Assembly (NCBI GenBank): GCA_035289305.1
Contig: DATDXN010000016.1
Span: 18,315 to 82,314, forward strand
Length of the DNA stretch: 64,000 nt
Source of the DNA: Patescibacteria group bacterium
Lineage (GTDB): Bacteria > Patescibacteriota > Microgenomatia > UBA1406 > HO2-37-13b
Reading direction: 5' to 3'
Part shown: piece after piece, positions 163-44,006 of the stretch
Layout of the letters: each line of letters opens with the position of its first letter
Numbering within the stretch: position 1 is the stretch's first letter
The notes under the pieces: generated by a model
Seen by the model: only the letters and a program-made list of their open reading frames with translations
Told to the model about the DNA's origin: nothing
Databases searched by the model: none
Made by a program: the position numbers and the translations under genes

Positions 163-182
163 GCCATAGTATTTTTTGAAAA

Positions 183-8712: not shown

Positions 8713-9633
8713 ATGAAAAAAATCAAGACTTTTTTTCATGTATTGACCAATTCTGCGATTCCTCATAGAGAGTATTACAAAAAGATCCAAAGGACGCCTT
8801 TTCGGTTTTCTCTCACCTATTTTTTCTTTCTCGTTTTTATCACTCAATTTATCGTCATGACGATTGTTTTTACAAGAATATGGCTTTTTGAGGGCAGTTT
8901 TGGGAGCTTCAAAACAAACGTCACGCAAATGTTTGATAGCTTCCCTCAAGATCTCGTGGTCACGATCAAAAATAGACGACTGTTTACCAACTATAATTAT
9001 CCTTTTATTGCGTGGTTTAACTACCACAATATTCCATTTCCCATAGTTGCTGTAGATGAATATGCCAACGCAGGAAAAATCCAGGAGTATGATTCATTTG
9101 TGCTTCTTCATGCTGAAGGAATCACCACGCAAACTCAAAAAGACCTTAATACCTATCCGTTTGAAAAAAATACAACGTATGTCATCAATAAAGAGAAAGT
9201 TAATACGCTCAAAAACTTCTTTCTCTACTGGTTTTCTCTCGTTTTTCCCTTAGCTGTTTTGCTCTTTTTCATTCTCACGATTTCAATCGTACCCTTTGCT
9301 TATTTTATTGGCACATTGATCTATCTCGTTGTGTTGGCCTTAGTTGTCTCTATCGCGGCAAAATTGAGCTATCAACATATTCATTACAAAAAAGTTCTGC
9401 AGATTAGTTTTCACGCAATCACGCTCCCGTTTATTCTCAATAATATCACATTTCTCATCATGCCCCATCGCCCCATTTTCAAATTATGGCCGGGAACTCA
9501 ACTTGCAGTGCAACTTAGATTTTCGTGGCTTTTTTTGGTGATCTATTTCTTGTTTTTGGTGGTCGCGGTATACGAAGTGTATGGTACTTCCTCCTCTCAT
9601 ACAAAATCTCATCATGTTTCCCATCATCAATGA
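8713..9633 (+). CDS. Hypothetical polytopic membrane protein
   Basis: Several hydrophobic segments and a C-terminal His-rich tail SHHVSHHQ. The start is taken at MKKIKTFF; no family assigned. Confidence 0.5.
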   Translation: MKKIKTFFHVLTNSAIPHREYYKKIQRTPFRFSLTYFFFLVFITQFIVMTIVFTRIWLFEGSFGSFKTNVTQMFDSFPQDLVVTIKNRRLFTNYNYPFIAWFNYHNIPFPIVAVDEYANAGKIQEYDSFVLLHAEGITTQTQKDLNTYPFEKNTTYVINKEKVNTLKNFFLYWFSLVFPLAVLLFFILTISIVPFAYFIGTLIYLVVLALVVSIAAKLSYQHIHYKKVLQISFHAITLPFILNNITFLIMPHRPIFKLWPGTQLAVQLRFSWLFLVIYFLFLVVAVYEVYGTSSSHTKSHHVSHHQ

Positions 9634-10910
9634 CGAGACGTCAAAATAGCCTCCAATTCTTTCACAAATGAAATATTTTTGTATGAAAATATGTGCGAGA
9701 AACCAAAACGCTCTGCATCGCGCATGATTTTTGCCTGACGTATGACTTTGCGTACCTCTCCCAAAAGCCCCACCTCACCGACAAACACCGATTTTTCAGG
9801 AGCGGGAATATTTTTGAATGAGGAAATAACCGAGGCAATAACTCCCAAATCTGCGGCAGTTGATTTGATCGAAATGCCACCGACAACGTTGACATAGATA
9901 TCGTAGCGATCAAGCGGTAACCCCATGTTTTTGCGAACGACTGCCAGAAGCAACAGTAATTTATTGTAGTCTATGCCCGATGATACTCGACGAGGGATGG
10001 TCAGGAAACTTTCAACCACCAACGTCTGCACTTCAAAAAAAAGAGGGCGATTGCCTTCTGCCACTCCCACGAGTACTTTGCCCGGAGCTCTTTTTGTCTC
10101 CTCATCCAAAAACATGGTAGATCCTGAAGCCTCTACAAATCCTTTTTCCTTCATCTCAAAAATTCCGACCTCATCTGTTGAACCAAATCGGTTTTTATGT
10201 GCTCGCAAAATCCGAAATTGCGACTGACGGTCTCCTTCAAAATACAAAACAACATCTACAACATGCTCAAGTAGTTTGGGTCCGGCAATACCTCCTTCTT
10301 TTGTCACGTGACCGATCATAATGACTGAAATATTGTTTTTTTTGGCAAAGTCAATGACTTGTGCGGCAATTTCTTTAATCTGCGCAGGAGCACCGGGAGA
10401 AGCTTCAATTTTTTTGGAATACACCGTTTGGATAGAATCAATGACGATGATGTCATAGATATTTTTTTTCTCACCCGCAGCCTCCAAAATTCCCTCAATT
10501 TGCACGTCATCGGAAAAATAGATGTGGGCAAGATCAACCCCCGTACGCTCTGCACGCTCTTTCACCTGTTCGCCAGACTCCTCACCGGAGACATAAAGAG
10601 TTTTCATTCCCGAAAAAGATGTCAAAAGAAGGGTCGATTTTCCAATGCCCGGGTCACCGCTTAAAAGGACGACAGATCCTTGAGCAAATCCACCCCCCAA
10701 AACACGGTCAAACTCGAAGAAGCGAGTTTTTTTGCGCTCACGCGTACGGCTTGTAACCTTCGAAAGAGAGATAATTGTTGCTTTTTTCGTTTCTTCCCCC
10801 ACCCCTATTTCTTTTTGTTCACGCATCATATTCCACTCTCCACAGGAGGGACATTTACCATACCACGAAGCTGAACCATATCCACACGAAGCGCAAATAA
10901 ACAATGACAT
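9627..10910 (-). CDS. radA: DNA repair protein RadA/Sms
   Basis: N-terminal C4 zinc finger (CASCGY...CPSCGEW), RecA-like Walker A GDPGIGKST, and a Lon-like C-terminal domain. Confidence 0.9.
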   Translation of the reverse strand: MSLFICASCGYGSASWYGKCPSCGEWNMMREQKEIGVGEETKKATIISLSKVTSRTRERKKTRFFEFDRVLGGGFAQGSVVLLSGDPGIGKSTLLLTSFSGMKTLYVSGEESGEQVKERAERTGVDLAHIYFSDDVQIEGILEAAGEKKNIYDIIVIDSIQTVYSKKIEASPGAPAQIKEIAAQVIDFAKKNNISVIMIGHVTKEGGIAGPKLLEHVVDVVLYFEGDRQSQFRILRAHKNRFGSTDEVGIFEMKEKGFVEASGSTMFLDEETKRAPGKVLVGVAEGNRPLFFEVQTLVVESFLTIPRRVSSGIDYNKLLLLLAVVRKNMGLPLDRYDIYVNVVGGISIKSTAADLGVIASVISSFKNIPAPEKSVFVGEVGLLGEVRKVIRQAKIMRDAERFGFSHIFSYKNISFVKELEAILTSRH

Positions 10911-10948
10911 TGCATCTATTCTAACAAAAAAAAGATTCTCTATTGACC

Positions 10949-10977
10949 TTGAAATATTGTAGAGGATGCGTTACAAT
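10949..10977 (+). promoter_or_regulatory. Sigma-70-like promoter for the 11003 gene
   Basis: TTGAAA (10949-10954), a 17-nt spacer, then TACAAT (10972-10977). It lies 26 nt upstream of the ATG. Confidence 0.4.
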
Positions 10978-11002
10978 ACACCTCCAAATTAGTTATAAAC
11001 AT

Positions 11003-12865
11003 ATGAATCGGAAAGAATTACCACCACCCACTACCCAACCGCATATCAAAATAATAAAAGAAGTGCCTGCTCTTTCTCCTATCGAGAAACGTCTCGTCCA
11101 CAGTGCGGTGAATGAAAATATAGACCAAGGAGTAGATCCAAAAGAAACCCATCAGAGAGGACAATACACCGAAGAAAGAATTCTTTTCCTGAAACTTAAT
11201 CTTCCTCCTTCATATAATTTTCAAGAAGTTCTTGAAACAATATATCCCAAATCTCTCGAGGATTCTGGTAATACTACAGCAAAAGAAAAACCCACAATAC
11301 CATGGCTTGCAGCAAAACCTTTCTCCACCGAAGATGAACAAGAAATAAAAAAATTATTGCCTCGCCTAGTGCTTGATGATCCAGTATATGAAGAAACATT
11401 GGACCTACCCGATTTTCCTCTATATGCCGTAAGCACTCTCCTCACTTCTGAAACGTATGAAAAAGCTCATGAAAAAATGGTGAAGACTATAAGAAAATAT
11501 ATACACGAAGCAATCGGGAATAGAGGGGAAATCGTCCTTACGGAAATACTTGAGGGAAATTCTCGTTTTGTAAAAGGAGCCCTCATCCAACAAGACATAC
11601 GCCATGCACTTTTTGGACAACCAACAGAGGATGGAGGATTTTATTATCGTCATCCGACGGTATTTCTCAGATGGGTTAACCAGTGTCATGATCGAAAAGC
11701 TCTGAAAGAAGTAATGGGTGTAATGGGTATAGAATCAAAAGAAAACGAAAAAATTCGTGGTCTTTTATTGCATACGTTTGCAATGCCTGCGCAAGAAGGA
11801 ATACATACACATATTCGAAATAGTCAAGATGACTCACGCATACGCCCCTCCTCACAAACAATAATGATGGCAATCGGAGAAAGCAATCTACCTGATATAT
11901 CATCTATGGAAAAAACCATACAAGAAACACTTCAAAAAAAATACTTACCTTCTCAATCATGTTGTTCTATCGAAGTAGCGCCACTTCCTGAAGCGAGTGG
12001 AAATTTCTATTATAAAATTCCAACGAGGAGTATAGAAGATACTTTCTCGATGTTGCAACAATCTGTTTCACTCATGGACTCCCTTAAAGAAAAGGGGTTG
12101 CTGCATCCGCTTACCGGAATGCCCCTTCGCACTGGCACAATGCTTGAATTTGAAAATCTAAACGATACAGAACGGAAAGTTTTGTTGCATTCATTCGCAG
12201 CACTCACTTGTGCATTATGGCTCTCTATCAGTCCTGTTGATCGACTAGAACATTTTCTTCAAGCCCAACGAAATTCCTTAATCGGCCATGATGATCATGG
12301 CAACGGAAGGTATGTCATATATAACAAGCTTCCCTTCGTAACTGATATGCTTTCTTTTGATGTGGCTCGTTTAGAGACGTTATTTACAGCGCATGTTGCG
12401 GAAACTTATAAACAAAATGGAATTGAGGACGCACGACAAACGATGAAGGAAATAATAGATGCTATCGGTGAAAACCTCATATCGCTCAATCGCTCTCCTG
12501 TAAATATAGAGTCTTTGCAAGATGTATATTCACTTTTGGGAGTAAAGTATGATGATAAATGTCATGAAACTATGGTGGGTCTTGTATCTGATCATCGACG
12601 AAAAATTGGAAACAACAGCGATCGTATACAACGTTTCTCTCGCGCATTGAAACGGGCGAAAAAAGAAAGTGCAGAAGAAAAAATACGAAAAATAGAAACT
12701 CTCCTTCATGATCTTGAAAACAGCAAGGTATACATTGACGATTATTTTCTTTTGGGGAAAGAGGGACGAAACAGGCTCGCCGGTAAGATCATAGAGATTT
12801 TGAAAGATGCGATAACTGCAACGGTAGGTAAAAAAAGAGGTGGCGTAGATTTTTCCTCTCTCTGA
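11003..12865 (+). CDS. Hypothetical protein (about 620 aa, no recognisable domains)
   Basis: Long intact ORF with a hydrophilic, charged sequence. The start is taken at MNRKELPPP; the upstream TTG in the ORF track is unlikely. Confidence 0.55.
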   Translation: MNRKELPPPTTQPHIKIIKEVPALSPIEKRLVHSAVNENIDQGVDPKETHQRGQYTEERILFLKLNLPPSYNFQEVLETIYPKSLEDSGNTTAKEKPTIPWLAAKPFSTEDEQEIKKLLPRLVLDDPVYEETLDLPDFPLYAVSTLLTSETYEKAHEKMVKTIRKYIHEAIGNRGEIVLTEILEGNSRFVKGALIQQDIRHALFGQPTEDGGFYYRHPTVFLRWVNQCHDRKALKEVMGVMGIESKENEKIRGLLLHTFAMPAQEGIHTHIRNSQDDSRIRPSSQTIMMAIGESNLPDISSMEKTIQETLQKKYLPSQSCCSIEVAPLPEASGNFYYKIPTRSIEDTFSMLQQSVSLMDSLKEKGLLHPLTGMPLRTGTMLEFENLNDTERKVLLHSFAALTCALWLSISPVDRLEHFLQAQRNSLIGHDDHGNGRYVIYNKLPFVTDMLSFDVARLETLFTAHVAETYKQNGIEDARQTMKEIIDAIGENLISLNRSPVNIESLQDVYSLLGVKYDDKCHETMVGLVSDHRRKIGNNSDRIQRFSRALKRAKKESAEEKIRKIETLLHDLENSKVYIDDYFLLGKEGRNRLAGKIIEILKDAITATVGKKRGGVDFSSL

Positions 12866-12940
12866 AATCCAAACGCTCCCACTTCAATTTATTAAATAAT
12901 TAAAGTCCTTATTCTCTGACAAAAATAGTAAGATAGAAGT

Positions 12941-13957
12941 ATGCATATACAACTTATTCCAGACAACTTCGATAAAGATATTTATAACCAAATAGCCACT
13001 CATCCCCTCCAGTCGTGGCAGTGGGGGGAGGCGCGGAAAAAGATGGGGATTGCAATAATGCGAGTCGGCGAATACCATAAAGAAACACTCGTTAATGTCT
13101 ACCAAGTCACTTTTCACCAGATTCCCCACACGCCTTTTACCATCGGATATTTGCCGCGATCTGCTACACCTTCAGAAGAAGTCGTGCATTTTCTTGAACA
13201 TGAAGGAAAGAAAAGAAACTGTATTTTCATCAAAGTTGAACCTTACGTAAGAAAATCAAAAATAAATGGAAATCCCTTAGGTGCAAATATAAATCCACCC
13301 CTGGGGTGTATTTTATCTTCTCACCCATTATTTCCAAATTGGACGCTCTTGCTTGATCTCACTAAATCTGAAGATGAGCTTTTGAAAAATATGCATCCAA
13401 AAACGAGATACAATATCAAACTTGCGCAGAAAAAGGGTGTAATTGTGAAAGAAATGACAAATACGCAAGGATTTGAAATATTTGCGAAGCTCTATTTTGA
13501 AACATGCAAAAGACAAAAGTATTTTGGTCACAATACGACCTATCACAAGACCATTTTTGAAACTTTGAAAAATACAATCTCACATATCTTGGTTGCTTTT
13601 TATGAAAAAACACCACTTGCCGCGTATGAGATTTTCATCTTTAACGGCGTCTTGTATTATCCCTACGGAGGATCTTCTGTTCAATTACGCAATCTTATGA
13701 TGCCACATCTTCTCATGTGGGAGGCAATACGCTTCGGGAAACAACAGGAGGCAAAAAAGTTTGATATGTGGGGATCACTCCCACCTTCATATGATGTGAA
13801 GAATCCCTGGGCAGGGTTTACTCGATTTAAAGAAGGGTTCGGTGGTATACACACGGAACTTATCGGTAGCTTCGATCTTGTAATTAACAAGTTACTCTAT
13901 CCTATATATAATTTTGTCTATAAAACACGAAGAAAATTTTTGACTTTAAATTTTTGA
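12941..13957 (+). CDS. FemAB-family peptidoglycan interpeptide-bridge peptidyltransferase (aminoacyl-tRNA dependent)
   Basis: The 338-aa ORF has FemAB/FemX-like features (KTRYNIKLAQKKGV, MWGS, GFTRFKEGFGG) in GNAT-like tandem halves. Confidence 0.65.
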   Translation: MHIQLIPDNFDKDIYNQIATHPLQSWQWGEARKKMGIAIMRVGEYHKETLVNVYQVTFHQIPHTPFTIGYLPRSATPSEEVVHFLEHEGKKRNCIFIKVEPYVRKSKINGNPLGANINPPLGCILSSHPLFPNWTLLLDLTKSEDELLKNMHPKTRYNIKLAQKKGVIVKEMTNTQGFEIFAKLYFETCKRQKYFGHNTTYHKTIFETLKNTISHILVAFYEKTPLAAYEIFIFNGVLYYPYGGSSVQLRNLMMPHLLMWEAIRFGKQQEAKKFDMWGSLPPSYDVKNPWAGFTRFKEGFGGIHTELIGSFDLVINKLLYPIYNFVYKTRRKFLTLNF

Positions 13958-16963: not shown

Positions 16964-19336
16964 TTACGACTCACTTAAATATTTATTCAACATTTCTCGT
17001 ATCATATCTAATTGTTCTTTTCTTGCTTTGTTTGGTGATGTGTTCGTTCTTAATTTGTAGCAAAATTGTTTCATGTAAGTAGCAATCGTTCTTTCTCCTA
17101 ATCCAAACTCTTTTCCCACCTTTTCAAAACTATCACCGTCGAAAAATACCCTCTTTACTATTTGTCCGTCACGGGGACTTAATATCATTTCTATCAATTT
17201 CTCAAGTTCTCTTCTAATAGCATACCTATTATGCTTGCGAACAATATATGGCTCGTATAGAGTCAGATCTATCTGCGCATTCCTTCTGTTAATATATGCT
17301 TTTATAAGAGACCTTCCAATTTCTGTCTCCTGCGCTAATTCTTCTGTTAGCGATTCGATCTCATCGTGTGGAATTCCGCAAGGATGCAATTTTAAAACAA
17401 CATCAATCCTATCTCTTACTTTTTCGTATGGAAGTGTTTTATGCCTACTGCGTAAAACCATACCAATGCCCATTTGTTCTTCCTTCGCGATATAAGAAGC
17501 CGCTGCGGCACGTGCGTCATAAAAAACTTGTTGAGGACTATAATATTTCGTTTTCACTTTCATAGCTTTTTCTGTTAACTTTCTCTGAATTGCAGCAATA
17601 GCTTCATGGAGCATTTCTTCATTATCATGCGCATTTTTTGACTTATATCCTTCAACTCCGTTCATAATAGTTTTTAAGTTTAAAAGCAAAAAAACAGTAC
17701 GTCCAGCAGATGAAACATTTGTATCAATGCTTGCCATCGCTTGTAGAATTTGACGTTGAGTTTCAGTTCTCACAAAATATGGCAAAGCCTTTACCATTAA
17801 TTCGTAAAAATCGAAAGAAGAGATACCGGGATTTTTATCATATATTTCCGAAGCAACGTGATTGATTGCAGCTGCAATTTCTATGATTGATCCACCCTTT
17901 AAATGTTTTCTCAAAAGCGACCGTGCTTGCACTGAATCTATCACTGAATGAATCTTGCCTCCAAAAAACTGTATTCGTGCATCGCTTTTTACATTTTTTC
18001 CTCTTTGACTTTTTTCTTGCACACTGCCTATTTGTGTCCCGCGTAGAACATAATACGGATCGAAAATATCTGGAATAAGAATAGGCGCTTGTGTCGAACG
18101 GGTGAAATCATCAACCAATTGAATAGCAATGCTTTTATGTTTTTGCGTCTCTTCACATGGCCGCAAAATTCTTCCAAGCTCCTGCGTCGCTACGATGCCG
18201 GATTGTGTGGGAGCTAAAAATATTCCAACTTCTGTCTCCGGCGAATCCCACCCTAACTGCAACATATTAACACCGAGCACAACTTGCACCTCTCCATTTT
18301 TATGCGACTGCAAAATTTGTTCTCTCTGTTTATCAGAAAGTTTACCATGCACTGCTTGAGCAGATATCCCAAGTCTGCGAAGTTTGTCTGCCAATTGCTC
18401 AACATGATTAATTGATAAACCAAACACCACCGTTCTTTTTCCGCGAATTTTTTCGTGTATCGAAGTCATCTCATCTACTTGTTGAGGAATAAAAGATATG
18501 TTTGATGAAAGACTATGAAGACCTGCAAGTAGACCGATCGTCAAATAGTTTCGTTTCTCTGTATTAAGATATTTTTCCAATTGTCGTTGATCATACGCCC
18601 CTTCTGGAGATATAGTAATAGCGTCAACAGCCATATCAGTGGTGAAAAGATGCACATCCAATGATGTTAAGATGCCTTTTTCTATTGCCTCCTCAAGCGA
18701 CATTTCATGGATAAGGCGTGTAAATACGCCCAACCAATGTTCGTCGCCTTTTATAATATTTCGTTCTTTGTATCCCGCAAGTTGTTCGAAATAAGGCGTT
18801 GCGGTAAGTCCTATTTTGATTGCGTTTTGGGGGATATGTTTGAACAACGTATGCCTTTCCTCACCTAAAGCAGTATGTATTTCGTCACAAATAAGAAGTT
18901 CTATTTTGTTTGTGTCGATTTTTTGCTGTTCAATGAGTTTGAGAAAAGACGTATAGGTAGTATTTAATGTTTGTCGTCCTAGATTTTTTTCAGCAGTATA
19001 ATAATTACCCACTTCTACGTGAGAAGCAAAATTTTCCATTGCACGATGTGTTTGCAGAAGAATAGGACGAGTGGGTGAAAGAATAACGGTATTCAAGTTC
19101 ATTGCTCCGATGAGTTCTGCTGCGACAACGGTCTTTCCAAATCCCGTAGGCAAACTTAAATATCCCGCAATATCGCCTTTTTTCAAAGAATCAAGCACTG
19201 ATTGTGCGACTGGTTTTTGGTGCTCTCGCAGCCTACTTTCTTGAGACGCATCTAAGTATCTGGTAAGACCCTCAATTGCCTTTTCGCAAGGAGCAACTAC
19301 CCTCCCTTGCTCTGGAACAACATATCTCTCCAACAT
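16964..19336 (-). CDS. SF2 DEAH-type helicase with a C-terminal sigma-70 region-4-like HTH
   Basis: LPTGFGKT (motif I), LICDEIH (motif II), GLTATP, and QELGRILR (motif VI). The C-terminus LSPRDGQIVKRVFFDGDSFEKVGKEFGLGERTIATYMKQFCYKLR parallels the rpoD region 4.2 in this window, [49 protein letters not shown]. Confidence 0.7.
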   Translation of the reverse strand: MLERYVVPEQGRVVAPCEKAIEGLTRYLDASQESRLREHQKPVAQSVLDSLKKGDIAGYLSLPTGFGKTVVAAELIGAMNLNTVILSPTRPILLQTHRAMENFASHVEVGNYYTAEKNLGRQTLNTTYTSFLKLIEQQKIDTNKIELLICDEIHTALGEERHTLFKHIPQNAIKIGLTATPYFEQLAGYKERNIIKGDEHWLGVFTRLIHEMSLEEAIEKGILTSLDVHLFTTDMAVDAITISPEGAYDQRQLEKYLNTEKRNYLTIGLLAGLHSLSSNISFIPQQVDEMTSIHEKIRGKRTVVFGLSINHVEQLADKLRRLGISAQAVHGKLSDKQREQILQSHKNGEVQVVLGVNMLQLGWDSPETEVGIFLAPTQSGIVATQELGRILRPCEETQKHKSIAIQLVDDFTRSTQAPILIPDIFDPYYVLRGTQIGSVQEKSQRGKNVKSDARIQFFGGKIHSVIDSVQARSLLRKHLKGGSIIEIAAAINHVASEIYDKNPGISSFDFYELMVKALPYFVRTETQRQILQAMASIDTNVSSAGRTVFLLLNLKTIMNGVEGYKSKNAHDNEEMLHEAIAAIQRKLTEKAMKVKTKYYSPQQVFYDARAAAASYIAKEEQMGIGMVLRSRHKTLPYEKVRDRIDVVLKLHPCGIPHDEIESLTEELAQETEIGRSLIKAYINRRNAQIDLTLYEPYIVRKHNRYAIRRELEKLIEMILSPRDGQIVKRVFFDGDSFEKVGKEFGLGERTIATYMKQFCYKLRTNTSPNKARKEQLDMIREMLNKYLSES

Positions 19337-19390
19337 AATACCCTATTATACCATAAAATTGTCTTATAGTAAATAGAGAACTATCGGGTA

Positions 19391-20490: not shown

Positions 20491-22278
20491 CTATATGAGA
20501 GAGAGCTTTTTTTCCACTTGTGATAGTTTGCGAAGGTAATCCTCAAGTCTGACATCGCTTTTTTCGGTTGCTCCTTCCTCCTTCATCATGTCCCTGATCT
20601 TCTTTTTGAGGGACATTCGTTTAAATTCAAGAAGAGGCTTTTCAAAATTTTTTTCCTCTACTTCTTCAAAGATAGCAATATCAAAAAGGACTATTTCATC
20701 AAAAACAGGCACAAGCTCTTTGGGAATGACATGAGCAAAAGCGTTGACAGAAAATGAGACCGGATGATCCTGACTGCAATAATCAAGAAGATGATTGACG
20801 AGTTTCCGATGAGAAGGAAGTGTAAAATCTTCTACATCTAAAACAGTCAGTGTCTTTTTTAGTATATGATCAGGATCTTTATGCTGAAAGATCGCGTGAA
20901 GGATATAGCGAGAAAGAATGTCGCGTCGGGAAATGCTACTGCGCTGTACTGTATGTGCGCTGGGCCGACGCCGCAAGGTAGTTTTTTGTTTTGCAATGGA
21001 CTTTCTGATCAAATCTTCTATCGATCTTTCATTCACCTGAAGAAGAGCGCTCATTTTTTTCAGATAATGTGATTTCACGATGGGATTTCTGATAAGCACA
21101 AGGAAGGGAATAACTTCCTCTGCAATGTTTTTTTTCGAGAACGCGTCTTCAATGCCATATTTTGCAAGCGCAGTTTCGATAACAAAATCATAAATAGCAA
21201 TGGGGCGCTCAATACTTTTCTTAAAAAGCTGTTTATCATGCGCAATTGCTTCATCTGGATCCTTCCCATTTGCAAATCGCGCAACCATTATTTCAAAATC
21301 AAGACTTTCTCCATCGAGTATCGCTTTTTTCGTCGTTGCAATTCCCGAAAAATCTGCATCCAAACATATAATGATTTTATTCGTGTACCGCTTCAGAAGC
21401 ATGAGTTGATCACGCGTCACAGCCGATCCTTTGACCGCAACCACATTGCCAATACCTATCTGAAAACAACTCATCGTATCAAACTCGCCCTCAACCACCA
21501 CAACCATCCCCTCTTTTTTGATCGCATCTTTTGCGATATGGATGCCAAAAAGCGTTTCGCGCTTATGATATATCGGTGTCTCTGGAGTATTGACATATTT
21601 TGCCTCTTTTGTAGGCGCGATCAGTCTCCCTGAAAAACCAACGATGTTTCCCGAGGCTAGAGTCAGCGGAAACATCACTCTCTTTCTGAAGCGATCATAA
21701 TATCGCCCGCCCGCACTTTTGATGACAAGACCTGCATCAACAATTTCCTCATCACGAAAGCCCTTTTTTTTCAAAAATGTGTGGAGCGAATTCCACGACG
21801 AAGGAGCATATCCCAGGCCAAACGTCTCAATGGTTTGTGCTCTTACACTTCGCTGTACTAGATATTGGCGTGCTTTTTCTCCAACCGTATGTTTCGTGAG
21901 TAAAAAGTGATAAAATTCTTGAGCAAGATGGTTGGCCGCAAGGAGTCGCTCTTTCTTTTTCCACTCCTTATCTTCAAACGACATACCTTCAAGCGATACG
22001 CCTGTTTTCTCGGCAAGTTCTCTTAAGATTTCGAAAAAAGGTCGTGCCTCCCATTTCATCAGAAACGCGATCACGTCCCCACCTGTTTGACACGCGCCAA
22101 AACATCTCCACGATTGCCGGTCGGGCGATATGATAAACGAAGGAGTCTTTTCCTGATGAAAAGGACACAAAGCTTTGAAGTTCCGTCCCGCTTTTTTAAG
22201 AGTGATACATGACCCGATGATATCAACAATATCCACTCTTCTTTTTACCTCATCAACAACGGTATCCATACACCTCAC
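20491..22278 (-). CDS. dnaG: DNA primase
   Basis: Zinc-binding [11 protein letters not shown]...[13 protein letters not shown], a TOPRIM region (EGEFD) and an N-terminal RVDIVDIIG. Confidence 0.93.
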
Positions 22279-37806: not shown

Positions 37807-40410
37807 TTAAGAACCGAAAACTACCGCAACACGGAAGCCGATGTAACCGCCCGAGGTCCCAGGCCGATCCCAATCGGCGTTCCCAGCACCACCGAGGTCA
37901 GAGCGACCAACCAGGAGACGGCGCGAACCACCGGACTCACGATATTCATCTTCTACCCACTCATAGGTATTAGTCTGTCCCCATCCTTCACGATTACCCA
38001 ATAAATTCCATTCTAAAGCTCTTAATAGTCGCATATCTGCTCTACCTACCAAACCAACGGTGGAGAGCACATCAGAGGTGATCCTCTGTATACCGTCTTG
38101 AGCAGTATTCCAGGTGATTTTGAATCTGTCAGAAAAACCAAGCATGGTAGTAATAGGGGTTTGGGCATAGTGGTTGCCAAAAGCTGGTTTCTCAAGGGTT
38201 TCAACAGCCATCCATTGTCCCGGCAAGGTTGGGAAATTGATTTTGTCTGCCTTTACCTCTTTCCAATACCACTTCATCAAGTTTCTTACCTTCGTGTGGT
38301 CAGCTTTGTCTGTATCTGATAATGACTCATATGGCTTCCAGTTGGGGTAATGAACATTTAATTCTTGTAAATACTCCTCAACGCTTTTATTGCGTAAGCT
38401 GCTTTGCAGTAAATCGAGCTTTGGGATAAAACGTAAAATCATACCAAGATCTTCTAATTTTCTCTTTACTTCTGGAGTAACATCAGCAGGGAGCGGCGCA
38501 ATATCTACGTGAGTACCCAATATATCCTGCCAAGCTCTTTGCTCGGCAACTTGTATTTCCGACACGGCCTCTTGCCTTCCTGCTCCTGTATCGACAGTAT
38601 CTCCCATTGGATCTTCATTACCGAGCGCTACCTCTCCTGCCATTTCCGAAGGAAGAATATAACTCTTGTCTTGATGAGGAATTTCAACCTGTATATCGGC
38701 CGTTGTGTCGGTGATTAGACCAAAAGCACGAAAGATTTTTTGTAGAGTTCGTCTCTCTTCTGGAACACTCATCGTTTTGGGATCCGTGACAAACTCACGA
38801 AGTTTATCGCTCATATAATGAGCAAAGTTTTGTCCTCTGGCAGAAGCCAGTTCCCATTCACCAAAGAGTTTAAAGAGCGTCCCTGGGTCAAGAAAATTGG
38901 TATTCAACGTTGTATCAGTGTTTCTTTGAGCATCAATGCCAAGAAGAGTCCTCATTTTTGTCGAAAAACCTTCAAAGTCGCGGTTGTGAATCCTTTGCAT
39001 CATTTCTGCAGCTTTAGTCAATTGTTCAACATATTTAACCTCATTCTGGCTCAGTTTTAATACTCCGCTTTCTGAAATTAACTTTGCCCGGATAATATCA
39101 TTCATCTCAGAAGCAGGCATATAACTTACTTCAACTCCTGTTAACTCACGAAGGATTGCAGGATCCATTTCTTCACGCTGCTTGGTCCTTTCATCTTTGG
39201 GATTTCCTGTAAAAACTTCAATAAAATTATTGGTTACATCAAAAACCTGTCCGTTAAAGCCGGGTATCTGGATCCGGTCCCCTGCACGGGCACCCATCAT
39301 GAATTTTGCAGCTAGTTGTGTTCTGGTTGAACCCCCGGTGTATTCCTCATGAATAACACCCACACCTCTTTCCAATGCTTTGGGTACAGGTCCTGGTTTC
39401 ATACCGCTCTGCACACCACCTAGTTCATCAGTCCATAACTCCCTGTACCCGAAAAGGTCGCGGGGAGTTGTGCCTTCATGCCAGTTAATAAGCTCATAGC
39501 CGCCTGTAAGATTGTTAAGAGCATAAAAAGCTAATTGTGTTTTACCTGTACCGGTTGAACCAACAAGAAAAATCTTTTTTCCTGCCAGTGCCTCACGGGT
39601 AATACGGTCAATCAGATGTTCTCTGGAGAGAGTCATGACAAAACCTTTCTCCTGAAGCTGTCTTTTATACTCCAATAACTTCTGCGTTTCAAGATAACCA
39701 AGAGTAGCAGGGGAGGCTGTGCCTTCAATACCTTTTTTTTGTTGTTCCAGTTCATCTAATTTACCCTGGAAAAAAGAGGTCTGATCGACTGAACTTTGAG
39801 TCAGCTTCCCGTGTTGTTGCTTATCTTCCAGATATCTTTTATACATTGCCTTCTTAAGCTTTCTGGTAACTCTGTCAATATCCCGGACCTGTCGTAGGGA
39901 TCGACGAGCTGCGTGATAGCGAGGCAACTCTTCATTGAATTCTTTTTCAAATCTGTCTCTTACTTGGGAACTTGCCAACAGTGCTGAGAGTCTGTGTTCA
40001 ATTTGCTTATGACGTTGCCCACCCTGGAGCTTATCTACATCTGGTTTGAGATGTAAAACCTCGTCAAGCTGGGTTTCCAGCTCCTCCAGTCCGCTTTTTT
40101 TACGGGGAATTTCTCTCCCATTTCCCGGTACACCCTCGGCGGTTAAATCAACATCTTTTATTTCAGCTATATCAGAAGAAGAGGGAAGGTAATATTCTTC
40201 CAGGTACCCTAATACTGCAAAACACTTATTTTGGATCTCTGCTTCAGATAACTCAGTTTGAGCAGCAGGCTGGGCTTTAGGGGAAATAAACCTTTTCCAG
40301 ACTAGAGGAGACAGGCGCTGGCGTGCTAATGGAGTAATCAACCAATCAGGAGCCGATGTTCTTGTGGGCAATAGTGTATCTGTTGCTTCCGCCATAAGTC
40401 TCTCTATCAT
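37807..40410 (-). CDS. DGR target protein: cytoplasmic P-loop (AAA+/MoxR-like) ATPase with a C-terminal C-type-lectin/FGE-fold variable domain
   Basis: Walker A KIFLVGSTGTGKTQLA. C-terminus ...YRESGGSRRLLVGRSDLGGAGNADWDRPGTSGGYIGFRVAVVFGS carries the variable repeat. No signal peptide or TM helix. Confidence 0.75.
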   Translation of the reverse strand: MIERLMAEATDTLLPTRTSAPDWLITPLARQRLSPLVWKRFISPKAQPAAQTELSEAEIQNKCFAVLGYLEEYYLPSSSDIAEIKDVDLTAEGVPGNGREIPRKKSGLEELETQLDEVLHLKPDVDKLQGGQRHKQIEHRLSALLASSQVRDRFEKEFNEELPRYHAARRSLRQVRDIDRVTRKLKKAMYKRYLEDKQQHGKLTQSSVDQTSFFQGKLDELEQQKKGIEGTASPATLGYLETQKLLEYKRQLQEKGFVMTLSREHLIDRITREALAGKKIFLVGSTGTGKTQLAFYALNNLTGGYELINWHEGTTPRDLFGYRELWTDELGGVQSGMKPGPVPKALERGVGVIHEEYTGGSTRTQLAAKFMMGARAGDRIQIPGFNGQVFDVTNNFIEVFTGNPKDERTKQREEMDPAILRELTGVEVSYMPASEMNDIIRAKLISESGVLKLSQNEVKYVEQLTKAAEMMQRIHNRDFEGFSTKMRTLLGIDAQRNTDTTLNTNFLDPGTLFKLFGEWELASARGQNFAHYMSDKLREFVTDPKTMSVPEERRTLQKIFRAFGLITDTTADIQVEIPHQDKSYILPSEMAGEVALGNEDPMGDTVDTGAGRQEAVSEIQVAEQRAWQDILGTHVDIAPLPADVTPEVKRKLEDLGMILRFIPKLDLLQSSLRNKSVEEYLQELNVHYPNWKPYESLSDTDKADHTKVRNLMKWYWKEVKADKINFPTLPGQWMAVETLEKPAFGNHYAQTPITTMLGFSDRFKITWNTAQDGIQRITSDVLSTVGLVGRADMRLLRALEWNLLGNREGWGQTNTYEWVEDEYRESGGSRRLLVGRSDLGGAGNADWDRPGTSGGYIGFRVAVVFGS
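37821..37941 (-). repeat. DGR variable repeat (VR) at the 3' end of the target gene
   Basis: 17 mismatches against the TR across 121 bp. 15 are at positions where the TR coding strand has A; the other 2 are non-A changes, one near the 3' (IMH-like) end. Confidence 0.8.
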
Positions 40411-40444
40411 TATACCAGATTTTTATAGTTGTTAACTACTGGCA

Positions 40445-43102
40445 CTATAGTTTTGATAATTGTTTCATTAATAATTTATGTCTTACCAGAGTGGCTTCCC
40501 TCACGTCATCAATTACAACTGCTGTATCCGGGTCTGCCGGATCATGGCAGACAATTTTAATATCCTGCGCCTCGCTTCCAAATCCTATACCTTGCACTAC
40601 AACACCGGCTGCCCGAAGCTCTTTAATTTCGTTGATACATCCGGCCTGATCGTCTACATCACCGTCTGAAACAACAGTCAAAACTTTCGCATAACCTCCT
40701 TTTTTAATCTTTTGTAAAGTGGCAGGATCCAGTGCTTCCCGATATTGTTTTAATGATTCACGAAGACCTCTTGATGACTGATTATGTGATTTTAACACAC
40801 CGTCAAGCTCAACAAGACCTCTTTCAGTAATAAAATCTGTGGATTCTTGGGCAACAGAAGTCCAATCACCAAATACTGCCACTCTTGATTTAACTGCCAA
40901 AGGTGTAGTCATACATCCTCTGTATCGGGAAAGTCCCAGTCGTTCATTAAGATTTTTAATGTTATATTCACTGCTTAGCACCATCTTCCGCTGTTCATCA
41001 GCAGGCAGGCCGCTCATTGACCCGGAAATATCCAGAATAAAATCATCTTCAAAAACAGAAACTTCTACTCGTTCTTTTTGTCTTACGTGTGACATCTGGT
41101 ACCCCAAAGGGTCATCCTCGTACGAACGAATATCGACAAATGCTGTCACAGAATCATCCAAAATTTCACCTTCGCTCTGTCTCACAGGACCTTTATATAC
41201 CTGCTGGGGAATTTCCCTGCGTTTATAAAGTAAATCAAATAACTGTCGCCATTCATCGTATATGGTACTTTGTCTGTGACTGATACTGGACTGCGCAGGA
41301 ACTGGAGTTCTGTTGACCCCGTTAATCCAGGTTTCCAGCTGATGCCACTGCTCCCATGCAATTCCTTTTTCCTGCTCAAACTGCTTGGCAGCTAATTCTT
41401 CCGGAGTGGGAGGTTGAATTGTTTGTTGATCTTGTTGAGAAAATTCTTGGTACAATTTTTCTATTTCCTCTTGGCTTAATTCAGATTGACCAACTAAAGA
41501 TTCTCCAAAATCCCCTTCAAGAGGTTCCTGATCACTATCCTGTTCTTCCTGCTTATCCTGTTTTTTTGCAGGTGTGGCATCCATACCTTTATGTATCCAT
41601 ATTTCCTTATCGGGATCCCAAACCTCTCCCCAGGCATGTTTATCCATTCCTTTAGCCTCAACAATTGCAAAATCAAAACGAGGATCTTTACTCCCTACAT
41701 AAGACCCTGTTGCAATACGGGAAGCAATCCTTATCCTTTTACACAGTTCATCCCGAAAAATATTTGCCCAGTAACAGTGGGCAATCCCTGTCTCGGTCAT
41801 TTTAGTCCAGAGTTCCTGTGGGAATACAGATAAATACAGGGAATCAATTTGACCTATTTCTGCAGCATCTTCCGGGTAACGAAACTTTTTACGGACATAG
41901 AGAGCAATTTCTCGTGCTTTTTGAACATCATTCATCCAATTTTGAGAAGATAATTCATCAAGGAACTCCTGTGTCTGTGGATCAACAGCTCCTCCCACAG
42001 GGATAAGATCACGATCACTAGGGGAAACATTGAGTTGATTAGATTGTGTTTCAGTCAGAACAAAATCGAATGAAAATTTTCCTGATGCTGCTTGTCTTTG
42101 TGTTCTGGGGTCAAGATAAACAATACCAAGATCATCTCTCATAAAGTGGAGTGAGTTAGCTGGCTGGAGCGTAGAAACTAATGGCAGAGTTCCATAAGGA
42201 AGTTTAACAAGAACTTCCTGTCCTGGTTGTATAACCCCTTCATACGTCCTTTTGGTTTTCCACACCGATTCATCTTCAGGAGCCTCATCAATATCCCACG
42301 ATTGTTTCATGCCTGATTCCTTAACAATTTGCCTTGTGCTTGGATCGTAGCGACATACCTGTTCTCTATAGTAGCCCCCGTAAAAAGGAGTAACTCTAAC
42401 AGCAATATCTGCCTCCTGAATAGGTTCTTTATCGTCGTTGATATCTTGAGTTTGAAATGGTCGATATTCAAACTTTTGAGATTGACCTGTTTGTCTATCA
42501 GTAGCAGCGAGTTCATCAATAAGAGGTTTCAAATGAGTTGCAAAATTTTGCCCGTCAAATCGAAAGTGACGACCACAGGCGATATAATCAACTAAACTTT
42601 GACCTCGGGACTTTGGGATTTTCTTGACCGCTTGAGTTACTGCATCTGAAAGGTGGTCTGGATATCTACCTGTTAGTACGTATGTATCAAGCGCCCATTG
42701 AAATTCTTGAACAAGCGTTTGATTTTGAGAATTAATGGGTTGATCACGAAGGATATCAGGGTTACTTTCTTTCAATCTTGCTAATCCTTGCCATCTAAGG
42801 ATTGGCTCACTGGCTTCGGGATAATCACGAATTGTTTGTAACAAGATACTTGCATCTTTTCGAATTGCTTGGGTGAGTCCCAAATGACCAGCCACCTGTC
42901 GCAAAGTTGCTATGCGCGCCTGGTCTTCGTTTTGAAATAAAGTCGTATTAACGCGCAGTTTTTGGTGACCTTCTGACCAAGCCATTCTCGCGCCTGTTTT
43001 TCTGGATAACACTACTACATCGCCATATACTTTTCTTCCTTCTTCGTGAGGAATTAAAGCACTTTCAACTGATGTGATCCCGACAGACTGTCTTTCATCC
43101 AT
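40445..43102 (-). CDS. Transglutaminase-like cysteine-protease domain plus C-terminal von Willebrand factor A (VWA) domain protein
   Basis: TGase-like GIAHCYWANIFRDELCKRIRIASR and HAWGEVWDPDKEIWIHKGMDATP (Cys-His-Asp). VWA MIDAS motif DISGSMSG...TVVSDGDVDD. The start is taken at MDERQ (43100-43102), because the longer ORF would overlap the divergent rmlD-like gene. Confidence 0.65.
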   Translation of the reverse strand: MDERQSVGITSVESALIPHEEGRKVYGDVVVLSRKTGARMAWSEGHQKLRVNTTLFQNEDQARIATLRQVAGHLGLTQAIRKDASILLQTIRDYPEASEPILRWQGLARLKESNPDILRDQPINSQNQTLVQEFQWALDTYVLTGRYPDHLSDAVTQAVKKIPKSRGQSLVDYIACGRHFRFDGQNFATHLKPLIDELAATDRQTGQSQKFEYRPFQTQDINDDKEPIQEADIAVRVTPFYGGYYREQVCRYDPSTRQIVKESGMKQSWDIDEAPEDESVWKTKRTYEGVIQPGQEVLVKLPYGTLPLVSTLQPANSLHFMRDDLGIVYLDPRTQRQAASGKFSFDFVLTETQSNQLNVSPSDRDLIPVGGAVDPQTQEFLDELSSQNWMNDVQKAREIALYVRKKFRYPEDAAEIGQIDSLYLSVFPQELWTKMTETGIAHCYWANIFRDELCKRIRIASRIATGSYVGSKDPRFDFAIVEAKGMDKHAWGEVWDPDKEIWIHKGMDATPAKKQDKQEEQDSDQEPLEGDFGESLVGQSELSQEEIEKLYQEFSQQDQQTIQPPTPEELAAKQFEQEKGIAWEQWHQLETWINGVNRTPVPAQSSISHRQSTIYDEWRQLFDLLYKRREIPQQVYKGPVRQSEGEILDDSVTAFVDIRSYEDDPLGYQMSHVRQKERVEVSVFEDDFILDISGSMSGLPADEQRKMVLSSEYNIKNLNERLGLSRYRGCMTTPLAVKSRVAVFGDWTSVAQESTDFITERGLVELDGVLKSHNQSSRGLRESLKQYREALDPATLQKIKKGGYAKVLTVVSDGDVDDQAGCINEIKELRAAGVVVQGIGFGSEAQDIKIVCHDPADPDTAVVIDDVREATLVRHKLLMKQLSKL

Positions 43103-43151
43103 AATTGTCAAAATTTTTTGTGTACAGTATATAAACAGTATATAATATGTT

Positions 43152-44006
43152 ATGAATAAAAAAATGGTAGTGGCGGCGACGGGTCTTGATGGACTCGTGG
43201 GATCACGAGTGAGAGAACTACTTGAGGATAAAATACAGTTCATACCTCTACCCAAAGAAATCATTGATATAACGAAAAAAGATTCGGTAAAACAGGCTTT
43301 ACAGTCAATTGACTTTGATATATTTCTGCATCTTGCAGCGTATACCAATGTAGACCTTGCGGAAAAAGAAAAAAGTCTAGCGTGGAGCGTTAATGTTGCG
43401 GGAACAAAAAATGTATTTGAAGTAGTTTCATCGCGTGAAAAAAAAATGATATACATCTCCACAGACTTCGTGTTTGATGGAGAAAACGCGCCATTTACCG
43501 AAGATTCTCCTCCCCGTCCCATCTCGCACTATGGCATGACGAAATATGAAGGAGAGAAAATCGTCAAAGATCATGCAATGATTGTCCGTTTCAGCTACCC
43601 TTATCGAGCATACTATGAGCCAAAAAAAGATATTGTGCGATCAATTCTTGCTGCTTTGAAAGACAAAAAACACATACAGGGAGTCGTTGATCAAATAATC
43701 ACGTTTACCTTCATTGACGATATTGCGCATGCACTACACTATCTTTTTCTCAACTATGCGCCTGAAATCTATCATGTTGTCGGAAAAGATAGTTTATCAG
43801 CCTATGATGCAATTATGACTATAGCTAAAGTTTTTGAGCTTGATACTTCTCTCGTCTCAAAAACGACATATGATGAGTTTTATAAAGGTAAAGCAAAACG
43901 TCCCAAAAAAGGAATTGTGAAATCAAAGAAAAATGTTTTTTACCCGATGAAAAGTTTAAAGGAAGGTTTAATGGAGATTAAAAAACAAAATTGTCTTTTA
44001 AAGTAA
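43152..44006 (+). CDS. dTDP-4-dehydrorhamnose reductase-like (RmlD family) NAD(P)-dependent sugar reductase
   Basis: The 284-aa ORF has the HYGMTK catalytic YxxxK region and is short-chain Rossmann-like. Confidence 0.7.
   Translation: MNKKMVVAATGLDGLVGSRVRELLEDKIQFIPLPKEIIDITKKDSVKQALQSIDFDIFLHLAAYTNVDLAEKEKSLAWSVNVAGTKNVFEVVSSREKKMIYISTDFVFDGENAPFTEDSPPRPISHYGMTKYEGEKIVKDHAMIVRFSYPYRAYYEPKKDIVRSILAALKDKKHIQGVVDQIITFTFIDDIAHALHYLFLNYAPEIYHVVGKDSLSAYDAIMTIAKVFELDTSLVSKTTYDEFYKGKAKRPKKGIVKSKKNVFYPMKSLKEGLMEIKKQNCLLK

Follow-up and report, generated by a model that had tools for sequence, protein, structure and literature searches.

What would a bacterial helicase do with the domains of a sigma factor? 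The question is raised by a 790-residue protein encoded on the window, by which we mean the whole 64,000-nucleotide (nt) stretch of Patescibacteria DNA analyzed here, in which its gene (hereafter the helicase-sigma gene) follows rpoD after a gap of 54 nt. A preliminary description had read this protein as a superfamily 2 (SF2) helicase fused to a helix-turn-helix (HTH) of about 50 amino acids (aa) resembling region 4.2 of the adjacent RpoD, had placed the gene in the dnaG-rpoD operon and had suggested a promoter (-35) targeted or RNA polymerase (RNAP)-associated remodeller, of a family that it did not recognise as described. Comparisons of sequences and predicted structures indicate that the protein is an XPB/RadD-type SF2 ATPase joined by a flexible linker to a complete, diverged sigma-70-family module, and we infer that an RNAP-associated remodeller is the best reading of it.

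The sigma-like half

Judged on the window protein alone, the resemblance to sigma region 4 is marginal. Sigma70_r4 (PF04545) scores 19.9 bits (E = 5.3e-4), under its gathering score of 24.1; BLASTP against the adjacent RpoD finds 12/37 identities at E = 0.24; and a hidden Markov model (HMM) made from close RpoD region-4 sequences alone gives no match to the helicase-sigma protein. Through the family, the same resemblance becomes unambiguous. We drew 49 full-length relatives with 31-48% identity from a database of 5.8 billion proteins; 47 of them match Sigma70_r4 at E <= 1e-3 (best 2.5e-18) vs. none for GerE at the same threshold. The family consensus of this region, L..L..RE..V...RFGL......TL.E.G...G...ERIRQIE.KALRKLRHP.R, reads as the signature of a primary sigma factor, and in most members region 4 is group-1-like and 50-63% identical to RpoD, including the RKLRHPSRS tail. 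For example, region 4 of homologue P0033 is 63% identical to that of the window RpoD (6e-26), and tblastn with the window RpoD as query matches homologue C-termini at 47-60% identity. Because of the family-wide match to Sigma70_r4 and the primary-sigma-like consensus, we regard the sigma-type fusion as real and conserved.

A LuxR/GerE-type or generic HTH is ruled out by the family-wide Pfam counts, together with the profile matches to primary sigma factors among PDB sequences described below. In the window protein, GerE (PF00196) reaches 15.8 bits vs. a cut-off of 23.5 (E 0.011), lower than Sigma70_r4, and as the curated LuxR/GerE thresholds are not reached the protein is not a member of these regulators.

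The recognition helix of region 4 is less uniform, with the E-R-[IV]-R-Q motif being kept by 19 of the 49 homologues (~40%). In the window copy the helix reads GERTIATYM (G-E-R-T-I-A-T-Y vs. the consensus T-R-E-R-I-R-Q-I); taking the -35 contact residues of region 4.2 to be R584, E585, R588 and Q589 of E. coli sigma70, all of these positions are replaced, placing the window copy among the most degenerate region-4 members of the family. The expected region-4 helices are present in the AlphaFold2 (AF2) model, with predicted local distance difference test (pLDDT) values of 86-91. The suggested -35 targeting is plausible wherever the motif survives, in ~40% of the family, but is unlikely for the window copy on which the suggestion had been based.

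The sigma part also extends well beyond the 50 aa first described. The C-terminal half appears to be a complete, strongly diverged sigma module of ~290 aa (residues ~480-765), running from region 1.2 to region 4.2 in the collinear order 1.2-2.1-2.2-2.3/2.4-3-4.1-4.2 of the primary sigma-70 factors RpoD and SigA, with which most members also share the ERIRQIE helix and RKLRHPSRS tail of region 4. This is evidenced by: 1) a profile of the C-terminal half that, against all PDB sequences, matched sigma factors alone, primary ones best (SigA 7.5e-38), with profile positions 103-331 aligned to SigA 152-390 in one collinear stretch from region 2.1 through 4.2; 2) an HHalign comparison with region 4 taken out of both profiles, which pairs the family (160 sequences) with RpoD over 175 columns at P = 2.4e-5 (aa ~481-682 with RpoD 68-248; P 0.07 for the reversed control); 3) a region-4-less HMM that, over the 344 open reading frames (ORFs) of the window, matched the helicase-sigma protein and RpoD alone, the latter with 16.8 bits (E = 6.7e-5) across regions 2.1 to 3.1; 4) the AF2 model of the C-terminal half (mean pLDDT 82.7), for which the top 14 Foldseek matches in the PDB are whole sigma factors, including SigB, SigD, WhiG, sigma70, FliA and sigmaE, mostly over ~230-300 alignment columns and with probabilities from 0.47 to 1.0, while region 2 of sigmaE alone (2map) gives a TMt of 0.68. 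The motifs are collinear by eye as well, in that NLKTILSAIEPY pairs with the RpoD region 2.1 stretch and E.IIQ.AI with DLIQEGN (2.2), a conserved Pro falls at the IRIPVHM position and an HTH-like 'LA.EL...TGI' at the region 3.1 HTH.

Within this half, the linker from the helicase is poorly ordered in the AF2 model (pLDDT < 50 over aa 429-450; mean 84.6 for the full-length protein). It is followed by a strand specific to the fused forms, IQFFG in the window copy and ITFSG in the family, in which conservation of F457 and G459 reaches at least 90%; proteins with a stand-alone sigma-like module begin at profile positions 21-50. The region 1.2/2-like domain carries the signature LQAMASIDTN (family consensus ALQAxASIDSN), and the region 3-like domain is modelled as three helices (636-650, 657-671 and 675-687), after which comes a low-confidence, 3.2-like linker with a dip in pLDDT at ~aa 690.

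In contrast to RpoD and SigA, regions 2 and 3 of the helicase-sigma protein have diverged past Pfam detection, and an N-terminal helicase of 450 aa stands in place of region 1.1. We take the residues for -10 recognition and melting to be Y430, W433, W434, Q437, T440 and R441 of E. coli (region 2.3/2.4). The columns of the Trp dyad are Q/Q across the family, no nearby column has more than 1% Trp and the remaining -10 contacts are unconserved. In region 2.2, the acidic residue is kept (D/E in 97%) and the Gln in 60%. Because the -10-melting residues are lost, the module can't act as an ordinary sigma factor; we prefer the term sigma-like for it over sigma factor because these residues and, in the window copy, the -35 contacts are absent. 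In all likelihood, the module derives from the sigma70 family yet is without its functional hallmarks.

The ATPase core and its family

Helicase motifs I, II (DEIH) and VI, as noted in the preliminary description, are present in Pfam domains that lie above their cut-offs (ResIII 79.6 bits vs. 22.5, Helicase_C 53.8 vs. 23.5, DEAD 49.7 vs. 26), and they are conserved across the 49 homologues. Conservation is complete or reaches at least 90% at G67, K68, D151, E152, T178, A179 and T180; Q385, G388, R389 and R392 are invariant; and an insertion between the two lobes has conserved W201, E215/E216, R262 and G272. The protein belongs to the SF2 helicases of the ResIII type and, with its motifs invariant, its ATPase is apparently active.

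By sequence, the nearest solved cores are archaeal XPB/Rad25 (5.7e-15), XPBII, UvrB and RadD, whereas by fold (Foldseek) they are SauUSI, LlaBIII, RadD and XPB/Ssl2 within TFIIH. Relatives of the XPB/RadD/SauUSI/LlaBIII type are mostly double-stranded DNA (dsDNA) translocases. NCBIfam also ranks RadD and XPB first, with both well under their equivalog cut-offs. RadD (YejH) is the best match (aa 35-398, 9.8e-26; Foldseek TMt ~0.48-0.50 with a root-mean-square deviation of 5-6 A), but the core alone is aligned, the RadD equivalog NF053632 scores 90.2 bits vs. a cut-off of 720 and the sigma module stands in place of the RadD C-terminal domain. The XPB equivalog NF045503 scores 64.7 bits vs. 610, and none of the XPB features DRD, RED and thumb was identified in the protein, which is thus a member of neither family.

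The window protein is identical to HLC94324.1, a database entry labelled only 'DEAD/DEAH box helicase family protein [Patescibacteria group bacterium]', and the identical protein is present on 9 contigs. In the homologue search, E-values drop steeply from 1e-109 to 1e-32, below which come ordinary helicases of ~755 aa that do not have the C-terminal half. The 160 representatives in which the mid domain is complete comprise 68 helicase fusions, 75 stand-alone proteins and 17 ambiguous cases. The stand-alone forms have a Met start just ahead of the sigma-like module and are typically 300-350 aa in length, some with long C-terminal tails; they have Sigma70_r4 but not the -10-melting residues. Those at loci L015, L016-L018 and L019 are true genes, whose neighbours on the upstream side are unrelated. 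A named example is KKQ28698.1, labelled 'RNA polymerase sigma factor [Candidatus Levybacteria bacterium GW2011_GWA1_37_16]', and a metagenome-assembled genome bearing the same species name holds a fused form (L001). What job a sigma factor unable to melt DNA might have is the question raised by such 'pseudo-sigma' proteins. In a rough neighbour-joining tree, fused and stand-alone forms are interspersed (27 Fitch changes), and nearest neighbours agree in form for 84% of fused and 64% of stand-alone members, the tree being too noisy to give the number of fusion or fission events.

The named sources are Levybacteria, Curtissbacteria and 'Patescibacteria group', and judged from all named clusters the family seems restricted to Patescibacteria. 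This restriction and the stand-alone relatives make the helicase-sigma proteins a coherent family, with the window copy as a degenerate representative. Members are labelled in databases as 'DEAD/DEAH box helicase', 'sigma-70 family sigma factor' or 'hypothetical protein', and neither Pfam nor NCBIfam has a dedicated model for the combination. The earlier impression that this is not a described family holds to that extent; we found no description of the fusion in the literature, with subscription journals mostly uncovered, so that novelty is unproven. Both parts are textbook modules, and what is new is the domain architecture and the sigma-like subfamily.

Two fused members lie in metagenome-assembled genomes with doubtful labels, 'uncultured Gammaproteobacteria' on a 3.6-kb contig (L003, CAYJVA010000097.1) and 'Candidatus Saccharibacteria' (L004, JAJDCL010000009.1), reflecting either mis-binning or a spread wider than the Microgenomates group.

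Some members vary at their ends. In several fused members an extra conserved motif lies past region 4, W..W....HPLP.......DE.RRY (alignment columns ~890-960; P0003, P0005, P0006 and P0017, also P0009), and the C-terminal tails of some others add up to 400 aa; the window protein has neither this motif nor a long tail and ends in one extra helix (aa 770-789). Ahead of the helicase, long N-terminal extensions occur in P0185 (1631 aa), P0004 (1100 aa) and P0041 (1013 aa), with the mid domain starting at aa 587-661. The mid-domain match of P0185 is limited to the first ~140 profile positions. The family has further architectures.

Possible roles of the fusion

We surmise that the sigma-mimicking module docks an XPB/RadD-like dsDNA translocase on RNAP or on promoter DNA, where the motor would act on RNAP-DNA complexes, a proposal that we hold to be evenly balanced between right and wrong. 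By mimicking sigma, the module would seat the motor on the RNAP core, where region 4 would contact the beta flap and region 2 the beta-prime clamp helices; it may also rest on -35-like DNA in those members whose recognition helix is intact. ATP-driven translocation or unwinding could then remodel RNAP-DNA complexes, clear them or aid their opening. Because its -35 recognition helix has decayed, the window copy likely retains docking but not promoter reading. Remodelling or recycling is more likely than ATP-dependent promoter opening, because the recognition helix decays repeatedly in the family and motor-less relatives exist.

The principle of an NTP motor docked on RNAP would be shared with RapA/HepA, Mfd and HelD, which are NTP-driven motors that remodel or recycle RNAP. 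RapA is of the Swi2/Snf2 kind, Mfd docks by its RID domain and HelD by its arms. These motors belong to other ATPase clades and have other docking modules, none of them sigma-derived; moreover, the helicase-sigma protein has no match to PF00176 and scores 23.6 bits vs. a cut-off of 26.7 for SWI2_SNF2 (PF18766), so it is not a member of the RapA/HepA group. Among these motors, HelD has been described as an RNAP-associated ATPase (PMC7749165). If the sigma-like half does dock on RNAP, the fusion would represent a new kind of link between an ATP-driven motor and transcription in bacteria. Patescibacteria have minimal genomes and are generally thought to be poor in transcription factors. The family therefore bears on how transcription is initiated or cleared in these bacteria, as well as on the exaptation of sigma domains.

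A number of observations weigh against this proposal. RNAP binding by the module is conjectured from its likeness to sigma factors, and the positions aligned to sigma70 E407 and N409, which we take to be core-binding, are not conserved. The mid regions are hard to recognize as sigma: Pfam regions 2 (PF04542) and 3 (PF04539) have no match in the window protein, Sigma70_r2 is weakly matched (0.0036) in 2 of 33 members when mid regions are searched at E <= 10, and the mid-domain profile finds no canonical sigma among PDB sequences, where the best matches are 'Gogy' at 0.041 and SigW at 1.4. Because of this last null result, homology to sigma regions 2 and 3 had to rest on the profile-profile, local HMM and fold comparisons. 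The yield of the region-4-less profile was also small, with 234 proteins (clusters at 50% identity) at E <= 1e-3 and 113 at <= 1e-30 from 1.84 billion representatives. Region 4 has decayed in many members including the window copy, which is unexpected if -35 reading is essential; the stand-alone relatives indicate that the module also works without a motor; homologue loci display no conserved neighbourhood with RNAP genes; and sigma-type HTHs are found as plain DNA-binding modules in other proteins, as exemplified by the BrxL N-terminus, where a tri-helical HTH of the sigma type serves a purpose other than transcription initiation (PMC12839542).

The BrxL precedent also lends itself to another account, in which the protein is a RadD/XPB-like repair or recombination helicase and its sigma-derived HTHs (regions 3 and 4) serve purely for DNA binding or targeting, with no contact to RNAP. 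RadD and XPB, the best NCBIfam matches of the core, are repair helicases; the melting residues and part of the core-binding residues are gone; and genes of DNA metabolism lie nearby, e.g. uvrD/PDDEXK in the window, gyrB/gyrA/holB at L009, recR/mgsA at L005 and, for a stand-alone form, uvrA/uvrC at L019. These neighbourhoods, however, differ from locus to locus, BrxL-type proteins have a single HTH domain as opposed to a whole multi-domain sigma layout, and a generic DNA binder needs neither the full, ordered set of sigma domains nor a group-1 RKLRHPSRS tail in a region 4 that is 50-63% identical to RpoD. We consider this account, the main rival, rather unlikely. The phage, plasmid or defence origin that one might read from the core, with the sigma-like HTH being incidental (e.g. 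to a restriction-like translocase or the replication helicase of a mobile element), seems very improbable to us. The top single profile match of the core is indeed the broad phage helicase family phrog_16 'DNA helicase' (PHROGs, 1.1e-47), PADLOC finds PbeA (2.5e-25, aa 31-402) as well as type IV restriction helicase models, SauUSI and LlaBIII are top Foldseek matches, and close relatives differ in whether they have the gene. Nonetheless, all of these profile matches align the generic helicase core alone, the surroundings contain no gene for a nuclease, a methylase or a defence partner, phage and integrase genes are absent from all of ~12 loci, the contexts are of the housekeeping rather than the mobile kind, and the divergence (31-48% identity) looks vertical within a single bacterial lineage. 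The protein is thus not a member of the PADLOC defence helicases.

The sigma-like half might, alternatively, constitute an ATP-dependent initiation factor, i.e. an alternative sigma in which the attached XPB-like translocase opens promoters in place of the missing -10-melting residues. XPB is a dsDNA translocase working at promoters alongside an initiation factor; the helicase-sigma protein has its initiation-factor-like part, of the bacterial sigma type, on the same polypeptide. A bacterial precedent for ATP-driven opening is sigma54, which can't melt DNA and relies on ATP hydrolysis by AAA+ enhancer-binding proteins; sigma54 is, however, unrelated to the sigma70 family, and its AAA+ hexamer works in trans whereas the SF2 motor is fused in cis here. 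The whole sigma architecture, the group-1-like -35 helix in ~40% of members, the family-wide absence of the Trp dyad, the invariant ATPase motifs and a core of the same kind as the XPB/Ssl2 and type ISP dsDNA translocases would all accord with such a factor. It is opposed by the stand-alone relatives, which have neither melting residues nor a motor, by the decay of the recognition helix in many fused members including the window copy, by region 2.2 core-binding positions that are partly kept and by the lack of an identified candidate promoter regulon, and we think it improbable. Were it true, the protein would be a single-polypeptide bacterial analogue of TFIIB/TFIIH-type ATP-dependent promoter opening and a third route beside spontaneous melting by sigma70 and sigma54 with AAA+ proteins, confined to the ultrasmall Patescibacteria, with the stand-alone relatives acting in that system as regulators or decoys that have no motor. 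Finally, that a helicase gene and a small sigma-like gene were simply read as one, as the preliminary description had allowed for, is hardly credible: stand-alone sigma-like genes do exist and intermingle with fused ones in the rough tree, but the frame is continuous in the window, the same protein recurs on 9 contigs, and 68 independent cluster representatives are fused and share the conserved ITFSG strand found only in fusions. An RNAP-associated remodeller thus remains our preferred reading of the fused protein.

Genomic setting

Coordinates of the gene, its domains and its neighbours are collected in the table. The window RpoD, with 77-85% identity to Roizmanbacteria RpoD, is a true primary sigma factor, and on the other side the gene for a UvrD-type helicase fused to a PD-(D/E)XK nuclease begins 14 nt past the helicase-sigma stop codon.

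Table. Features of the helicase-sigma gene, its surroundings in the window and stand-alone relatives (positions of the latter refer to their own loci)
Feature	Residues (aa)	Position (nt)	Strand	Remarks
dnaG		20491..22278	(-)	upstream of rpoD, same strand
rpoD	362 aa	19391..20479	(-)	true primary sigma factor; Pfam regions 1.2, 2, 3, 4
Promoter-like site TTTACT-17-TATAAT with TG extension (TGgTATAAT)		19345..19373	(-)	rpoD-helicase gap; consensus match alone
Helicase-sigma gene	790 aa	16964..19336	(-)	SF2 helicase and sigma-like module; single unbroken frame
RecA-like domain 1	35-182	18791..19234	(-)	Pfam ResIII 3.3e-22, DEAD 4.5e-13
Motif I PTGFGKT	63-69	19130-19150	(-)	RecA-like domain 1
Motif II DEIH	151-154	18875-18886	(-)	RecA-like domain 1
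Motif III TAT	178-180		(-)	RecA-like domain 1
Inter-lobe helicase insertion	183-289	18470..18790	(-)	family-conserved; confident in AF2 model
RecA-like domain 2	290-430	18047..18469	(-)	Pfam Helicase_C 2.8e-14 at aa 290-392
Motif VI QELGRILR	385-392	18161-18184	(-)	RecA-like domain 2
Flexible linker, helicase to sigma-like module	431-454	17975..18046	(-)	variable in family alignment
Fusion-specific strand IQFFG and two long helices	455-504	17825..17974	(-)	strand without counterpart in stand-alone relatives
Putative sigma region 1.2/2.1/2.2/2.3-2.4-like domain	505-625	17462..17824	(-)	HHalign, HMM, Foldseek
Putative sigma region 3-like three-helix domain	636-690	17267..17431	(-)	collinear alignment to SigA, RpoD
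Sigma region 4-like domain	695-765	17042..17254	(-)	degenerate recognition helix GERTIATYMKQF; Pfam Sigma70_r4 aa 719-763
UvrD-type helicase fused to PD-(D/E)XK nuclease	992 aa	13971..16949	(-)	Pfam UvrD-helicase 8e-72, UvrD_C, PDDEXK_1 1e-39
Stand-alone sigma-like genes	~320 aa	L015 4422-5387; L016-L018 8001-8957; L019 8001-8975		diverged regions 1.2-3 and good Sigma70_r4; no helicase

The placement of the gene in a dnaG-rpoD (macromolecular synthesis) operon does not extend to the family. Context look-ups, locus scans of genomes and metagenomes and tblastn with RpoD, DnaG and UvrD revealed rpoD next to the homologue at 0 of ~12 other loci, and seven homologues on contigs of 11-137 kb have varied housekeeping neighbours with no rpoD, dnaG or uvrD. 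The exception is L024, where a canonical 611-aa sigma gene lies 3 kb upstream with two unrelated genes between. Elsewhere, the neighbours are gyrB/gyrA/holB (L009) or recR and mgsA (L005), and the stand-alone gene at L019 comes directly after uvrA-transglutaminase-uvrC, in which a transglutaminase-core gene sits between uvrA and uvrC.

A relative of the window lineage, L020 (RpoD 85% identical), displays the string dnaG-rpoD-uvrD/PDDEXK-...-FemAB, i.e. the synteny of the window minus the helicase-sigma gene. Because L020 shares this synteny without the gene, the latter was either inserted in the window lineage or lost in L020. In L020 the uvrD/PDDEXK orthologue (53% identity) comes straight after rpoD, so that dnaG-rpoD-uvrD/nuclease seems to be the ancestral order in the lineage, and we postulate that the window gene may have come to lie between rpoD and the uvrD/nuclease gene by a lineage-specific insertion, with its own promoter-like box. 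An operon link with rpoD and dnaG is ruled out by the ~12 non-adjacent loci and the gene-free synteny of L020; the adjacency to rpoD appears to be incidental and, for annotation, is no basis for inferring function.

The promoter-like site in the gap, with 10/12 consensus matches, is the best-scoring one in a 5.7-kb region, and because only 8 nt separate the end of its -10 box from the helicase-sigma ATG, a near-leaderless transcript is suggested. At the equivalent place after rpoD in L020 (~10130-10140), ahead of the uvrD-like gene, there is a TGATATAAT box, likewise by consensus match alone.

Several minor features were noted in passing. The UvrD/PD-(D/E)XK protein has a C-terminal Cys cluster, CDFCPFRINC. 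Further along, a FemAB-family gene (12941-13957) adjoins a 640-aa ORF on the (+) strand (10943-12865) that has no Pfam match at E <= 1e-5. In L016-L018, ~3 kb without called genes and then ORFs with LAGLIDADG, GIY-YIG and 23S_rRNA_IVP matches lie 3' of the stand-alone gene (~9000-13400); this stretch resembles an rRNA operon interrupted by intervening sequences, of the kind reported from bacteria of the candidate phyla radiation (PMC11270868). At 37807-43522 (-) of the window, there are two big adjoining ORFs, one of 867 aa with an AAA_5 dynein-related ATPase domain and one of 1025 aa with a transglutaminase-like core, these being the only domains recognized in them.

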